IMG/VR virus record: IMGVR_UViG_3300020045_002149
Span: 1-34,586 of that record
Length of the DNA: 34,586 nt
Source: a virus
Taxonomy: Duplodnaviria > Caudoviricetes
Reading direction: 5' to 3' (one strand)
Made by a program: the position numbers and the translations under genes. This document shows positions 3,747 through 25,055 of the stretch, piece after piece (position 1 is the stretch's first letter; each line of letters begins with the position of its first letter). The notes under the pieces are model-generated. The model saw only the letters and a program-made list of their open reading frames with translations, was not told where the DNA came from and made no database searches.

Positions 3747-4301
3747 ATGGGCCGGACGTTCGTCTGCATCGCCTCCGGCCCGAGCCTAAACGCGCGCGAC
3801 TGCGAACTGGTCCGCGCCGCCGGCCTCCCCACAATCGCTGTGAACAACTCTTGGCAGCTAGCCCCGTGGTGTGATCATCTTTATGCGGGTGATCTCGCGT
3901 GGTGGGATGCGAACGTCTCCAAAGTGCCTGACGGCCCTAAGCGATGGACGTGTACCCGCCAGGGGTCCGCGAAGCACGCTCTCAACCTGCATACCGCTTA
4001 CGGGGAGTACAACTCAGGATTACGCGCAATCGAACTAGCCTTCCAGCTAGGCGCCGAACGCGTCCTACTTCTCGGGTATGACTGCACGGTGCAAGGAGGA
4101 ACGCACTGGCACGGCGACCACAAAGACACGAAGAATCCGGACGAAGCGTTGTGCAGGAAGTGGAACAAGCAGCATTGCCGGTTGGCGCAGAAAGATCGGG
4201 TCGTCAATTGCTCGCGTGACACAGCGCTGACGGCGTACCGTTTAGGCATGTTGGAAAAAGAGTTGCAAAAGGTTGTTGACACTTGTGATGCGAATGACTA
4301 A
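3747..4301 (+). CDS. Maf/DUF115 (MptE-like, sialyltransferase-like fold) putative glycosyltransferase
   Basis: CIASGPSL, IAVNNS, NSG..AI.LA..LGA..V.LLGYD motifs; ATG at 3747 follows the upstream stop. Confidence 0.7.
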   Translation: MGRTFVCIASGPSLNARDCELVRAAGLPTIAVNNSWQLAPWCDHLYAGDLAWWDANVSKVPDGPKRWTCTRQGSAKHALNLHTAYGEYNSGLRAIELAFQLGAERVLLLGYDCTVQGGTHWHGDHKDTKNPDEALCRKWNKQHCRLAQKDRVVNCSRDTALTAYRLGMLEKELQKVVDTCDAND

Positions 4302-4304
4302 AGT
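4276..4304 (+). promoter_or_regulatory. Sigma70 promoter of the ncRNA array
   Basis: TTGACA(4276-81)-17 bp-TAAAGT(4299-4304). Confidence 0.85.
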
Positions 4305-4314
4305 TTGTTTCAAG

Positions 4315-4381
4315 CAACACGGTTCACGGCCTCGCAGATGCCGCCAGACTAATAGCCCGGACTAGACCTGGGGTCGTGTTG
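4315..4381 (+). ncRNA. Predicted three-way-junction RNA
   Basis: CAACACGG/TCGTGTTG closing stem enclosing CGGC/GCCG and CCAG/CTGG stems. Confidence 0.5.
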
Positions 4382-4384
4382 GTA

Positions 4385-4490
4385 GATTGGTTTCGGGTGG
4401 AAGTATCAGGTGCAAGCCCTGACGCATTACGCGGCTACGTAGGTAGCATAAGACTTAGTACTGAGGGTTCGATACCCTCCGCCAATCGCA
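4385..4490 (+). ncRNA. tRNA-like element with an enlarged variable region and no encoded CCA
   Basis: GATTGGT/GCCAATC acceptor-like stem; TCAGG-TGCAAGC-CCTGA arm; GAGGG-TTCGATA-CCCTC T arm. Confidence 0.6.
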
Positions 4491-4494
4491 ATAA

Positions 4495-4565
4495 GCGGGT
4501 ACGCACAGGGCGTTGATCAGCCTTCCAAGCTGATGACTAGGGTTCGATTCCCTATATCCGCTCCA
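4495..4565 (+). tRNA. tRNA-Gly(UCC) with a shortened, atypical D arm
   Basis: Acceptor GCGGGTA/TATCCGC; anticodon arm TCAGC-CTTCCAA-GCTGA; T arm TAGGG-TTCGATT-CCCTA; U73 plus CCA. Confidence 0.88.
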
Positions 4566-4585
4566 TATTTCCCGCACATGCGGAA

Positions 4586-4630
4586 CGCGGCTGACGAGAC
4601 CGGTAGGTCGAAACCCGAAAGGGTTCCGCG
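4586..4630 (+). ncRNA. Hammerhead ribozyme (type I topology)
   Basis: CGCGG-CTGACGA-GACC(GGTA)GGTC-GAA-ACCC(GAAA)GGGT-T-CCGCG: all core nucleotides and three stems present. Confidence 0.9.
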
Positions 4631-4641
4631 GATTAGCCCCA

Positions 4642-4754
4642 GGCGGGGAATAACCGGCTATCAGGGAGATCAACCTAAGCATATTCGATTCTGAGTCTGT
4701 TTAGGCCGTGGGTGCACAACGGTCTCCTGCGCAGTGCACATCTGGCCCGCCACC
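4642..4754 (+). ncRNA. Predicted nested 3-way junction plus pseudoknot RNA
   Basis: GGCGGG/CCCGCC, CCGG/CTGG, GGAGA/TCTCC, CCTAAGCA/TGTTTAGG, CCGT/ACGG; loop GTGCAC pairs with downstream GTGCAC. Confidence 0.55.
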
Positions 4755-4760
4755 TATTTT

Positions 4761-4931
4761 ACGACTCTCCCTGTGCTGATCAATTTAAGGGATTCAGGCC
4801 GAATAGCACGCTAGGCCGGCTGTCCTAGGCACGTAGCAGCGCCGTTATCGTCTGGCGCGGTAGGCCCCTAGGAGGTAAACGATACGAGGACTCGGAGCCT
4901 CGTTAAAAATTCCGAGGCCTATTCCCGTCGT
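4761..4931 (+). ncRNA. Predicted multi-pseudoknot RNA
   Basis: ACGAC/GTCGT closing stem enclosing three candidate pseudoknots. Confidence 0.5.
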
Positions 4932-4940
4932 GCCCTCCTT

Positions 4941-4964
4941 GACCCGCTTCGGCGGGTTCTTTTT
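4941..4964 (+). terminator. Rho-independent terminator ending the ncRNA array
   Basis: GACCCGC-TTCG-GCGGGTT followed by CTTTTT. Confidence 0.9.
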
Positions 4965-4976
4965 GAACGAGGCTTT

Positions 4977-5855
4977 ATGATTATTCATTCTATGAAAGGA
5001 CTCGGAGATAACGTTTATCAGCGAGCGTTCATCAAAGCCCTACCGAAACCTGTTTACCTCGACACACCCTGGCCGGAAATCTATTCCGACATCCCCGGCG
5101 TCCACTTCATCCGTCCGCAAACCAACCTGCGCACCCAGGCGAAGAACATCGCGCGCCAGGGCCGCACATGGGAAACGCCACCGCCGCGCCAGCCCTCCCG
5201 GCAGATCCGTTACGGCGCCGAAGGAATTATCAAAGGCATGACGGCCAGCTTCGGTGTGGCGCCAAGCGAGTTCGACCTTCCGCCGTTGCCCCCAACCTGG
5301 GAGCCGCGTCCTTATGTCGTAGTGCGCCCGGCCACGGTGCGCAGCGAGTGGCGAGCGGACACCCGCAACCCTCTCCCGATGTACATAGACGAGGCCGTAG
5401 CAGACGCACGAAAGCGCGGCTACCGGGTTATCTCTGTCGCCGACCTAGAAGACGGTAAAGAGTGGTTAATCGCCCATCCGCCGGTCACGGACACGCAGTA
5501 CCACAAAGGCGAACTGTCGGTCGAACAACTACTGTCGCTCGTTGCTAACGCCTCGGCGGTAATCGGCGGTATTGGCTGGCTGGTGCCGGCGGCCCTAGCT
5601 GCGAAAGTTCCTGCATGGATCATCTGCGGCGGCCAAGGTGGTTATAATGCGCCGGAGTTGATCACGCCAAAAGGGCAGAGCAATATCACATTCGCGGTTC
5701 CTGACAACTTTTGTCGCTGCCGCCTCAAAACTCACAACTGCGACAAGAGGATTTCAGATTATGACTCAAAGCTTACCGCATGGGCTGACCGACACATTCC
5801 TGTGGTCGGACGAGATGGGCAGGGGCTATCACTCCCGGCCGGCGATGCGTTATGA
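4977..5855 (+). CDS. GT-B glycosyltransferase (GT9/heptosyltransferase-like)
   Basis: N-terminal GLGD motif; C-terminal L..L.A.ASAVIGG....PAALAAKVP; GAGG RBS. Confidence 0.75.
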   Translation: MIIHSMKGLGDNVYQRAFIKALPKPVYLDTPWPEIYSDIPGVHFIRPQTNLRTQAKNIARQGRTWETPPPRQPSRQIRYGAEGIIKGMTASFGVAPSEFDLPPLPPTWEPRPYVVVRPATVRSEWRADTRNPLPMYIDEAVADARKRGYRVISVADLEDGKEWLIAHPPVTDTQYHKGELSVEQLLSLVANASAVIGGIGWLVPAALAAKVPAWIICGGQGGYNAPELITPKGQSNITFAVPDNFCRCRLKTHNCDKRISDYDSKLTAWADRHIPVVGRDGQGLSLPAGDAL

Positions 5856-6378
5856 AGGCGCGTATTTCGCGCACTACCAGAAGCTTGACGCGACAAAGAT
5901 GGGGCAGCTACTGACAAAAGCCCGATTGGAACTGGTCGAGAAGTACACCAAGGCTAGCCAAGGCGTGGATATCGGGATAGGCGGAGGTCGTTACGTCCAG
6001 GAATCTTGGGGGAACGGCTATGACGTCTGTGACGAGGCTGTAAAGTGGCTTAACAACATGGGCTCCTACACTGACCCTTACGTCGCGCCCGTTAGCCACG
6101 TCACTTGCTGGGATAGTTTGGAGCACATCCCGGAGCCGGAAAAGTTATTGGCGAACGTAAGGGATTGGCTTTTCGTCTCCCTGCCGTTGTGCGAATCCCC
6201 GGAGGAATGGCAATCCAGTAAGCATTTCAAACCGGGGGAGCATCTGCACTATTGGTCTCTACAGGGGTTCGTGTCGTGGTGCCAGAGCCTCGGGTTCGAG
6301 TGTGTAGAGATAAACCACGCCGAAACGGAACTAGGTCGCGAAGGTATCACCTCGTTTGCGTTTAAAAGGGTATCCTGA
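5761..6378 (+). CDS. Class I SAM-dependent methyltransferase
   Basis: VDIGIGGG motif I; WDSLEHIPEP; EHLHYW. Confidence 0.8.
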   Translation: MTQSLPHGLTDTFLWSDEMGRGYHSRPAMRYEGAYFAHYQKLDATKMGQLLTKARLELVEKYTKASQGVDIGIGGGRYVQESWGNGYDVCDEAVKWLNNMGSYTDPYVAPVSHVTCWDSLEHIPEPEKLLANVRDWLFVSLPLCESPEEWQSSKHFKPGEHLHYWSLQGFVSWCQSLGFECVEINHAETELGREGITSFAFKRVS

Positions 6379-22176: not shown

Positions 22177-22205
22177 AGCTTATGCAAGATTCGACTTGTA
22201 GTCAA
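22177..22205 (-). promoter_or_regulatory. Sigma70 promoter
   Basis: TTGACT-17 bp-TAAGCT. Confidence 0.75.
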
Positions 22206-23230
22206 CCTTTCCGGTAGCGATACGCTTCGAAGCCGGCTGCGGCGAGCGGTAAGCCTTCTGTCCAGTCGCAACCGGCGGACATCAGTTCGGCCAGGTGTTC
22301 GTGCGTGTAGTCGTCGGTGTCCGGCGCTTCGCTGATGATCTCGTCGTGGACGGTCAGCACGATTTCGTAACCGGCTTTCTCGATATCCGGCATCCGATAG
22401 GCCAACACATCCCGCGCACTGGCCTGCGTCACGTTTTCCGCCAGCTTGCCAGAGTAGGTGCGCAGCCGTTCCCATTTGCGGCTGTACTGGTTGATCCCCA
22501 TGTACGTGATCTGCCCGTCGTCCTCAACGCGAGGCGATGGGTAGCAGAGATAGCGCCCGCTCGGCAGCATGACGCGCAGCCAAGCGCCATCACGGCGGAT
22601 CTTGTGGCGACGGCACGTCAGGGTGCGGCCGGGGTTGTTGATCGCGTCGCGACAAGCGTTCTCCAGTTCCTTCCAGTAGGTTACGGTCTGCGGATGTGCT
22701 TCACGCCAGAGACGCTTAAAGGACTCGCAGACGATGAACGCCTCTTCTGACAGGCCGTAAGTGCTCTTGCCCTGGCTGATGTGCCATTCCATGAAGTCGC
22801 GCGCTTCGCGCAGCATGGCCGCCGGGATCGCGTCCCATGCGTTTTTCGCCATCAGCTCCAAGTCGATGTTGAAGGCAAGCGAGAAGGTGATAAACGCGCC
22901 TACGCCCCCGGCGTAACCCAATGCGAGTTCCATGGTCTTGCCGATCTGCCGCATGGTGTCGTCAACGTCTTCAGGCGAGCAGCCGAACGCCTTGGCGTAG
23001 GCCAAGATGTAAAGGTCGAAACCCTTACGGATCGGCTTCTGCTTTTTGTCGTCCCAGCCGATCACCGTATCAAAGTCGCGGAACGCTTGGAGCTTCCACT
23101 CTTCACCGGCCAGCCAAGCGAGCTTACGCCCCTCGATGTTTGAGAGGTCGGCAACGACCAGCTTCTTACCCTTCGGCGCGATCACACAGCCGCGCGTGGC
23201 GCTGCTGCAGGCTTCCATAACGGTTGTCAT
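22202..23230 (-). CDS. Family A DNA polymerase, C-terminal catalytic part
   Basis: Motif A DLSNIEGR, motif [14 protein letters not shown], motif C VHDE. Confidence 0.95.
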
Positions 23231-23985
23231 ACGAGGTCTCCATACATCGCGTCTTCGATACGCTTTTGCGCGATGGCGAAGTATTTATCGTCGCGCTCGA
23301 TACCGATGAAGTTGCGGCCGGTATTCGCACACGCCACGCCAGTTGTGCCGCTCCCCATCGTGTTGTCGAGAACCGTTTCACCTTCGTTGGTGTAGGTTCG
23401 GATCAGGTATTCCATTAGGGCGACGGGTTTTTGTGTAGGGTGAATGCCGTCGCGCTGACAGTCAAAATGCAAAACAGAATTTGGGTATCCGGTGAACTCT
23501 TGAATATAGGAGTCTTTGGCGTTAGCTCGGGCTTCGAACGCAGAACCACGATGCCCCTTGGAATTCTTTACTGTTTTCCCAAGCGGTGTAAGGTCCTGAG
23601 GGTTGTAAGTCATACGATTCTTGCACTGGCTTATGTGGCCTGTCTTAGCGGGCGAGAAAACTAAAACGTCTTCGTGCTGTGTCATCGGTTTATTTTTAGC
23701 TTGAGCGAAACCAGCCGGCATGTTTTTACACCACACCCACTGATAGCGAAACCACTCCGGATTAGACATGACGAGAGCGGATGTAAAAGGTTGTCCAGCG
23801 GTTAGCACAACTGCTCCGGAGCTTTTCAATAGGCGCCGGTATTCTGCCCACAACTGGTCGAATGGGATAATCGAATCCCAAGCGCAAGCGGTAGTGCCGT
23901 ACGGCAAATCGCAGAGCACCATATCCACGGAACCCTCCGGGATGAGCTTCATCATTTCCAGGCAATCGCCGTGCATTAAGTTCAT
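23227..23985 (-). CDS. N4/N6 DNA methyltransferase (beta class)
   Basis: [20 protein letters not shown]. Confidence 0.95.
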
Positions 23986-25055
23986 ACCAAATCCTCGGCA
24001 TCCGCCTTCAAGGCTTCAATCCACAGTTCTATTTCTTTGTTCTTGATCGTAGGTCTAGCCAGATTCTGGGGCTGCCATAGGCGACCCGCCCACCGTCCCG
24101 TGCGCAACGCGCCACAGAACGCGAGAAGCCCCCGCAGCCTGCCGTCTGCGCTAACGCCATTAAGAACGCGTTTGTACTTTGACACACTGGTCTTGCTGGC
24201 CTGCAGCCGGACGGCCAGCAGTTCGCGCAATTCCACCGGCAAATCGGGGTCATCAATGCGACGCTCCAGGGTGCTGATCTGCAGATCGGGAAGCCCGACC
24301 CCATAAGCCTCTAGGATGTGCTCCAGCATCTTGTCGCGCTGGTTGGCACTCGTTACAGCGCCATCGGTCAAACGCACTGCGTCGGCTGCGTGGATCTTCT
24401 GCGCCCGGTCGCTGGCGCGGATCGCCGCGTGCGCTAAGTCCAGGTCCATCAGGACGCCGCGCTCGTTGATCTTCTGGTCGAGCTGCCACAGTTCGCGTTC
24501 TGCACCGCGGTAGTTCCAGCGCGGCAGCTTCTTATAGATCTCGCGCATCGCCTCGATGTCTAGCCCACCGTAGGCGCGGAAGCGCTGCCACTCTACCGGG
24601 TGCGTGTGCTTCGTGGCCCGGCGTATTTTGCGGCCCTTCGGTTGAGGTTTGCAGAAGAGGGCGATCCAGGTTCTGCCTTCCTTGTCTTTGGCTTTATCGA
24701 CGGCAACGCCGAGAATCGAACACAGCGTCCCGAGTGCGCCCGGCAAAGAATGTGCCATGGCACAGACCATCGTATCGAAGACACGTTCAACAGGAAGCAC
24801 AATGCCAGCCGCGTGGCGCATGACCGTGCGGTCGAAAGCGCTGTTCTGAATGACCACTTCATAACTTTCATCCTCAAGCAATGCGAGCAAGTCGCTTATG
24901 TCTTCATCCCCGTCGCGAATCTCGACGGGCCCATCGCCTACCGCCCACTGCCACATGATGATCTCGGCGTCTTCTGCATAGCGGTGGGTGCCGTTGTTGA
25001 TCGGCGTTTCGCAGTAGGTCTCTGTGTCTAGGAAAATGCAGTTATCGATGTTCAT
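23982..25055 (-). CDS. Family A DNA polymerase, N-terminal part (3'-5' exonuclease and thumb)
   Basis: LDTET, N.AFDR, Y...D exonuclease motifs; INERG; TGRWAGR..QPQNL. Confidence 0.93.
   Translation of the reverse strand: MNIDNCIFLDTETYCETPINNGTHRYAEDAEIIMWQWAVGDGPVEIRDGDEDISDLLALLEDESYEVVIQNSAFDRTVMRHAAGIVLPVERVFDTMVCAMAHSLPGALGTLCSILGVAVDKAKDKEGRTWIALFCKPQPKGRKIRRATKHTHPVEWQRFRAYGGLDIEAMREIYKKLPRWNYRGAERELWQLDQKINERGVLMDLDLAHAAIRASDRAQKIHAADAVRLTDGAVTSANQRDKMLEHILEAYGVGLPDLQISTLERRIDDPDLPVELRELLAVRLQASKTSVSKYKRVLNGVSADGRLRGLLAFCGALRTGRWAGRLWQPQNLARPTIKNKEIELWIEALKADAEDLV

Follow-up and report, generated by a model that had tools for sequence, protein, structure and literature searches.

We analysed a stretch of 34,586 nucleotides (nt) of viral DNA, called the window below, which is a linear, 65% complete record of a tailed phage (IMG/VR IMGVR_UViG_3300020045_002149; Duplodnaviria, Caudoviricetes), and found a type I hammerhead ribozyme at 4586–4630 of the plus strand fused to a conserved RNA of 126 nt at 4626–4751. 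This RNA is a two-halved core closed by a double pseudoknot, and it is the predicted mature product of the ribozyme, whose cut is expected at 4625/4626, directly in front of the core. Sequence comparison confirms that the hammerhead is genuine, its cleavage being predicted. On balance, we consider it probable that the hammerhead is a maturation device that gives the 126-nt RNA a free 5' end at the first of two matching leader sequences, the mature RNA then acting in trans.

All parts of the ribozyme can be assigned in the window. Stem I is formed by 4586–4590 with 4626–4630, stem II by 4598–4601 with 4606–4609, including the G10.1-C11.1 pair, and stem III by 4613–4616 with 4621–4624; bases C3 to A9 occupy 4591–4597, GAA lies at 4610–4612, and the cleavage triplet G4623-U4624-U4625 sets the predicted cut. 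The motif agrees with the full type I consensus (C3 U4 G5 A6 N7 G8 A9, G12 A13 A14 A15, U16 H17), for which the available part of PMC3088659 served as reference, and stems I–III adjoin the hammerhead core with the open ends in stem I, as expected of this type. A structure-aware type I descriptor matched the window once, where 200 first-order Markov simulations averaged 0.01 matches, and a sequence pattern also matched once, against 0.01 in 100 shuffles. Because stems I–III covary among 19 homologues (98.6–100% paired, with both-side changes in 7/12 pairs), which is strong evidence, we accept the hammerhead as real; its folding signal alone (z −2.0) is weak evidence. A first-pass annotation, made from the letters of the window, had proposed a complete hammerhead at 4586–4630, and the consensus core, the covarying stems and the chance expectation of about 0.01 bear this out. 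Its suggested comparison with the Rfam hammerhead models gave a divided answer: HH9 covers exactly 4586–4630, at a score (19.8 bits, E 0.042) that stays under the gathering score of 52, and reaches 23–28 bits in three homologues. The sub-threshold score lowers membership of HH9 only; HH9 models another subfamily. Among 160 variants, aligned after long loops had been shortened, no partner of the stem II loop appeared in the top covarying pairs, and stem I is short (3–5 base pairs in 123/160). The first pair of stem II is variable across the same 160 elements (G-C in 92, A.A in 29, U.U in 22), the window copy having the canonical G-C.

The core downstream of the cut consists of two similar hairpin halves, in which each loop pairs with the tail of the other half. 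Both halves share one geometry, made up of a leader (NCGYGG), a 6-base-pair stem, a loop of mostly 15–17 nt, a short linker and a tail, as parsed in 242 of 262 cases with 20 left out of the half-to-half parse. In the window, leader A (NCGYGGA, 4626–4632), whose first bases sit in hammerhead stem I before the cut, leads into hairpin A (4633–4661; stem 4633–4638/4656–4661, both-side changes in 5/6 pairs) and tail A (4665–4671). A variable linker hairpin (4674–4705), which in the other arrangement of the element described below is absent or replaced by paired flanks, connects half A to leader B (NCGUGG, 4706–4711) and hairpin B (4712–4739; stem 4712–4717/4734–4739, 100% of cells paired, both-side changes in 5/6 pairs), all of these on the plus strand. 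The loop of hairpin A measures 17 nt and carries the best-conserved unpaired bases; its pairing bases (4639–4647) reach the tail of half B through 4642–4647/4746–4751 and 4639–4640/4744–4745, and the helix between loop A and tail B keeps 6/6 pairs in 110/116 elements. Tail A pairs in turn with loop B at 4721–4727 (79.7% of cells paired, both-side changes in 6/7 pairs). The fifth base of leader B covaries with position 4654 (G-C in 147, U-A in 13).

In 19 aligned copies with the window's order, the complete model of 47 proposed pairs in nine helices has 93.8% of cells paired and 29 pairs with both-side changes; none of 500 shuffles matches it, and slid controls reach 31–41%. Because the 47-pair structure was derived from the same 19 sequences on which its pairing was scored, we take as independent support a mutual-information analysis of 160 and 120 variants, treated separately, in which the top pairs fall in the same helices. 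Conservation at some positions is partly by design, as the search patterns fix some of the conserved bases. Two further ideas about the core were discarded. A GGA-UCU helix (4630–4632/4741–4743) is paired in 19/19 copies and invariant, hence unsupported; and a likeness of half A to a clustered regularly interspaced short palindromic repeat (CRISPR) gave 0 CRISPR family matches, the covariation placing those bases in the pseudoknot. No family of Rfam 15 was reported over the core, either in the window (E up to 10) or in 20 and 17 homologous or neighbouring loci (E up to 0.5), in an output that omits lower-scoring clan-mates of reported matches. A search by title and abstract, whose range excluded the PMC5737381 supplement (224 motifs) and the bulk of subscription papers, returned no published description of the core; provisionally, pending such supplements, the novelty lies in the core, whereas the hammerhead taken alone would add one more member to a known kind. 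The first-pass annotation had also placed the start of a pseudoknot-rich RNA at the 3' product of the hammerhead, which the comparison supports for the RNA, the cut itself being predicted.

The two leaders are linked by their first base, N, which is the same in leaders A and B in 157/160 hammerhead-bearing copies. The identity is found equally in copies of the core that lack a hammerhead, with agreement in 112 of 115 parsed copies against a mean of 38 and a maximum of 56 in shuffles. In these copies all four bases occur at N (C in 49, U in 31, G in 30 and A in 2), which has no complementary partner in cis. On a tree of the 160 variants built without the N columns, N changes 41 times, and independent pairs agree in 8/8 and 6/6 cases. 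The ribozyme is held in strict register with this base: in all 87 elements that show the leader, from a search that left the 3' side unfixed, UH stands immediately 5' of leader A, whose N is paired with position 2.1, and the hammerhead-predicted cut falls exactly before N of leader A (87/87). We considered that leader B might swap into hammerhead stem I after the cut, a scheme that fitted 114/116 elements. Because the identity persists in 112/115 hammerhead-less cores, such a swap is unneeded, and it is to the core itself that the identity of N belongs. It may reflect a like-with-like contact across a pseudo-axis or a partner outside the element shared by both leaders, and the data fit both equally. 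Cutting would expose and free leader A, which is held in the short stem I until then.

Homologues of the element are widespread in phages. In a blastn search, 4584–4756 was about 70% identical to sequences in Pectobacterium phages Pappous and Taid, Dickeya phage Setonix and Enterobacter phage SDFMU_EhYP, and a pattern drawn from the downstream part alone retrieved 54 viral loci, of which 35 form hairpin A, all with a hammerhead; the other 19 are without hairpin A and were excluded. All element counts are samples and lower bounds, at least 160 unique hammerhead-bearing and at least 120 unique hammerhead-less variants (at least 280 together). The hammerhead-bearing elements occur in two circular permutations. 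The window's order, which runs from the hammerhead through half A and the linker hairpin to half B, is found in 31 of them, and a permuted order (half B, hammerhead, half A) in 129. Tandem copies in two loci, L046 (minus strand, 1725–1380) and L069, bridge both permutations. Permuted cores without a hammerhead make up 33/34 viral and 113/119 metagenome loci (at least 120 unique), the remaining 1/34 and 6/119 having been excluded for fewer than five pseudoknot pairs and 5/120 having unparsed leaders; in the window's order, hammerhead-less copies number 0/35. In searches for the hammerhead-bearing form, loci without a hammerhead core (11/120 and 102/119) were set aside, and 35/120 loci fell outside the strict parse, comprising 28 distinct sequences of which about 17 are variant members by eye and the remainder chance matches. 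Judged from these distributions, the hammerhead is optional for the core. Its known hosts are cultured phages of enterobacteria and actinobacteria as well as E. coli prophages, with a partial match in a cyanophage; the element is found in siphoviruses, one podovirus and prophages, and occurs as a single copy in 15/5426 E. coli genomes. It is present in SDFMU_EhYP, where phiKDA1 and Entb_48 have another insert in its place. Alignment of this site (L003:2960–3170 against L417/L418) puts the enterobacterial element in the loop of a bulged stem, in which phiKDA1 and Entb_48 hold a different insert of about 40 nt; this bulged-stem slot is possibly processed by ribonuclease III (RNase III).

Comparison of the copies shows the helices, both permutations, that the hammerhead is optional, the register of the cut and the sameness of N in the two leaders, and on these we build the following proposal. 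A promoter at 4276–4304 would drive transcription of the surrounding non-coding island; the ribozyme would cut after 4625 and the short stem I would release; the freed leader A would then dock on the matching leader B across the pseudo-two-fold axis, most simply by pairing like base with like, and so complete a fold that is compact and resistant to nucleases. The mature RNA would act in trans as a gene product in its own right; up to this point we hold the scheme to be somewhat more probable than not. Tentatively, it might serve late in infection as a scaffold or decoy that binds a host factor of defence or of RNA handling, which is the weakest step of the scheme and one that we hold to be rather doubtful.

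In our reading, the RNA prefers one of its leaders to be a free 5' end, and the hammerhead supplies this end where there is no other source, the other copies appearing to gain it from a transcription start or a tRNA boundary. Three features of the copies point in this direction. A −10-like box lies 6 nt before leader B more commonly than at other spacings in each of two separate sets (9/129 and 7/113, corrected P 0.004 and 0.002). A transfer RNA (tRNA) end called by ARAGORN coincides with leader B in 18/104 hammerhead-less copies, one of the 18 being misregistered, compared with 5/122 hammerhead-bearing copies (P 0.0015). Conversely, paired flanks that bury leader B are found in 64/122 hammerhead-bearing and 27/104 hammerhead-less copies (P 7e-5), over a background of 10–13% in shuffles.

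Several observations weigh against the maturation reading. The three tests of end sources ignore the relatedness of the copies, in 80/104 hammerhead-less copies no source of an end, be it a tRNA end or a −10 box, was detected at leader B, and the 27/104 with paired flanks have them despite lacking a hammerhead. Selection for C after the tRNA discriminator, the mark of a precise cut after tRNA position 74, was sought and rejected (10/11 against a background of 85%, P 0.5). Because leader A is internal in hammerhead-less copies, the fold can do without a free end at this leader; a single site that accommodates C-C, G-G, U-U and A-A pairs makes high geometric demands; and a single insertion event, passed down to all copies, could account for the fixed cut register. 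The window copy itself has a GUU triplet, which is rare in the family (5/160), and its local minimum-energy fold pairs 4566–4575 with loop A, in competition with the pseudoknot. Transcript data add little: 14 RNA runs contain part of an enterobacterial homologue, and four RNA-library contig sets cover a homologue partially and show no joints or ends, a weak test in which DNA carry-over is possible. Four raw RNA runs yielded 0 reads and hence provide no test.

The surroundings of the element bear on whether it works for the neighbouring tRNA. In the window, a tRNA-Gly(TCC) with a 3' end CCA (4495–4565, plus strand) lies outside the conserved unit; the hammerhead motif starts 20 nt after its end, and the predicted cut lies 60 nt past the CCA. 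Of the hammerhead-bearing elements, 156 have flanks of 150 nt or more; in this set, a tRNA end lies within 40 nt upstream in 15, a tRNA start within 40 nt downstream in 17, and any tRNA within 300 nt in 35. The neighbouring tRNAs (35/156 and 57/101 elements) are all on the same strand, none opposite, and represent many isotypes in the set of 156. In Pappous and Setonix the tRNA stands downstream of the element, and SDFMU_EhYP has no tRNA nearby. In a close relative (L050), the element follows directly behind the same promoter with no tRNA. Together with the 15/156 count, this speaks against the tRNA as functional partner, which the first-pass annotation had assumed. We read the element as one more occupant of an RNA-gene slot that tRNAs also use, and not as an aid to the tRNAs. 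Comparison of the slot behind the same promoter (window 4305–4965 against L050 and L420) finds that it contains different RNA modules in related phages, in the manner of an interchangeable RNA cassette site.

To assess the protein-coding neighbours, we scanned 103 of 165 flanking open reading frames (ORFs), 62 being left out; 50 match a family and no fixed protein partner emerges. The best matches include 15 head, packaging or connector proteins, six HNH nucleases and three Q antiterminators, and no RNA ligase or reverse transcriptase is among the matches listed for these 103 ORFs. In an E. coli prophage, the element stands between Q and the holin gene, in the late leader after Q, and a T7-like phage carries it after the capsid terminator. 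These placements, the tRNA neighbours on one strand and the lack of a constant protein partner are how a gene behaves, and they count in favour of the preferred reading.

The same data can be read in other ways. The core might itself be catalytic, as a new ribozyme with self-cleaving and possibly ligating activity at a site 5' of leader B (4705/4706), much as theta ribozymes cleave at their 5' edge, with the hammerhead making the symmetric cut before leader A; two such cuts could release a circularisable fragment. In size, double pseudoknot and permutations the core resembles small nucleolytic ribozymes, its best-conserved unpaired loop contacts leader B, there is no conservation 5' of leader B, where all four bases occur, and leader B begins 0–3 nt after a script-assigned tRNA discriminator in 21 of 50 junctions within 35 nt. 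However, a −10-like box that places the transcription start at N leaves nothing to cut, self-cleavage does not predict that the presence of the hammerhead tracks a buried leader B, C is unenriched after the discriminator (the 10/11 count above), and the RNA contigs, weak test as they are, lack joints. We regard a catalytic core as unlikely. The same holds for the view that the core founds a new natural ribozyme class derived from a symmetric homodimer, which would cut, and could rejoin, 5' of the NCG leader as the hammerhead makes the mirror-image cut. Should the core be a ribozyme, the element would be a two-ribozyme phage device that matures tRNA 3' ends and is able to excise or circularise its own halves. 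Less probable still is the proposal of the first-pass annotation, in which the hammerhead punctuates a polycistronic transcript and frees its tRNA side, the 5'-OH of the other product slows 5'-end-dependent decay, and the downstream structure only stabilises. With the window's permutation, the tRNA and the remainder do fall on opposite sides of the cut, and ribonuclease E (RNase E) prefers 5'-monophosphate ends. Protection of the 5'-OH end from RNase E is possible, but would leave unexplained the 129/160 permuted copies, in which the predicted cut is an internal nick, and the 120 hammerhead-less copies. Prophage hammerheads that flank genes have indeed been proposed as processors of long transcripts, in the available part of PMC3088659. 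Yet a tRNA is upstream in only 15/156 elements, the cut is internal in 129/160, at least 120 variants do without the hammerhead, and a stabiliser needs no base-level identity between two leaders.

The remaining two readings assign the RNA a binding role or no role. As a two-site aptamer or sponge, it would have both N recognise one kind of nucleotide ligand or host RNA; molecules of anti-phage signalling, such as symmetric cyclic dinucleotides or cyclic mononucleotides, are examples of such ligands. Pseudo-symmetric two-site riboswitches exist, and the two equivalent halves, the late, tRNA-like placement and the strict identity of an N that has four base states and no cis complement would suit such a function; the roughly 41 switches of N among 160 variants look more neutral than a change of ligand, and we give this reading little credence. 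We hold it to be very improbable that the element is a selfish mobile RNA of the retrozyme kind, propagated by way of a circular intermediate and of no service to the phage. The two circular permutations, the tandem copies in L046 and L069, the presence in SDFMU_EhYP against another insert in phiKDA1 and Entb_48, and the spread over siphoviruses, a podovirus and prophages speak for it. Against it stand the one place per genome in 15/5426 E. coli genomes, the sense orientation within RNA-gene clusters, the dispensable hammerhead and the fact that no reverse transcriptase is among the listed matches of flanking ORFs. Maturation of the 126-nt RNA by the hammerhead is the account that we prefer.

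The element is part of a non-coding island (4305–4965) set between two head-region genes of a genome that encodes head, tail, lysis and replication genes of siphovirus type. The island is headed by a σ70-like promoter (4276–4304, plus strand, 10/12 matches), whose activity is predicted, and closes with an intrinsic-terminator-like hairpin and U tract (4941–4965, plus strand). Two further plus-strand modules lie between the core and this terminator, outside the hammerhead unit. The first, at 4763–4885, recurs with compensating changes in 10 viral loci, in 0/10 of which a core lies within 250 nt, and has no Rfam match in the window or in six of the 10 loci. The second, a small H-type pseudoknot-like module at 4886–4919, recurs in 15 of the 19 viral loci found by its first 16 bases, and its copies often adjoin or just precede tRNAs or terminators. 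The first-pass annotation had treated everything after the cut as one half of about 340 nt; the conserved unit stops at 4751, and because 4763–4885 and 4886–4919 recur apart from the core, this half resolves into three independent modules. A plasmid search with 4750–4975 gave short matches only. Upstream of the tRNA-Gly, two T-arm-like hairpins (about 4405–4423 and 4463–4479, within 4350–4490) are without a tRNA call, and a homologue search with the first returned 23 loci, 0 with similar flanks. Weak Rfam matches to isrK, rsmX and tmRNA in the window lie mostly over a terminator or a T-arm-like hairpin and were rejected. The flanks of the island in the head-neck region (3747–6378) carry a sialyltransferase-like gene, a gene of no assigned function and a methyltransferase gene. 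Elsewhere in the window, portal-family matches fall on two ORFs (4–2003), and the DNA polymerase is split into two ORFs (22202–25055) around a DNA methyltransferase gene (23227–23985).

Among known phage RNAs close to it in setting are the theta ribozymes, small phage ribozymes beside tRNA genes, which the available part of PMC10879173 describes as similar to the hepatitis delta virus (HDV) ribozyme and as cleaving no more than 5 nt from the 3' end of a tRNA; nowhere does the main text of that paper use the word hammerhead. Here the catalytic motif is a hammerhead, and because a tRNA is upstream in only 15/156 elements and the predicted cut (4625/4626) lies 60 nt from the tRNA end at 4565, the element is not theta-like, although the 3' end of a tRNA directly adjoins some of the hammerhead-less cores, in a register similar to that of theta ribozymes. 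No HDV-type Rfam match was found in the window or in the 20 and 17 loci, and the helix order of the core differs from the HDV-like nested double pseudoknot. GOLLD, ROOL and the RAGATH motifs are orphan structured phage RNAs near tRNAs or ribozymes, and the core shares with this type of RNA its conservation, its pseudoknots and its place in phage tRNA clusters or by ribozymes; it differs in having two like halves and an optional hammerhead. A retrozyme is an element bounded by two repeated hammerheads. The type I hammerhead, occasional tandem copies and permutation are common to our element and to retrozymes or hammerhead circular RNAs, but it usually has one hammerhead or none and, where counted, a single copy per genome; the window contains one matching hammerhead, tandem copies were noted only in L046 and L069, and the four RNA contig sets, a weak test, contain no joint that would indicate a circular form.

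The build of the core is unusual in its halves that clasp each other, its optional ribozyme, its natural permutation and the one base kept identical in both halves, and it points to one of three novelties, namely a catalytic RNA, a fold or an RNA decoy that counters host defence. As the element is present in cultured phages and E. coli prophages, these possibilities are testable in laboratory hosts. The closest relatives of the ribozyme itself are the bacterial and prophage type I hammerheads (PMC3088659, available part; Rfam clan CL00010), with which it shares the full core, three stems, an open stem I and a phage intergenic setting. It differs from them in that the 3' strand of stem I is at the same time the conserved leader of a 126-nt core, and in that this core occurs without the ribozyme and in two permutations; the hammerhead descriptions in the available part of PMC3088659 include no appended domain of this kind. 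The role of phage hammerheads is stated as open in the available part of PMC6765202, and for a large set of them the comparison presented here offers a concrete candidate job, the maturation of one uncatalogued RNA.
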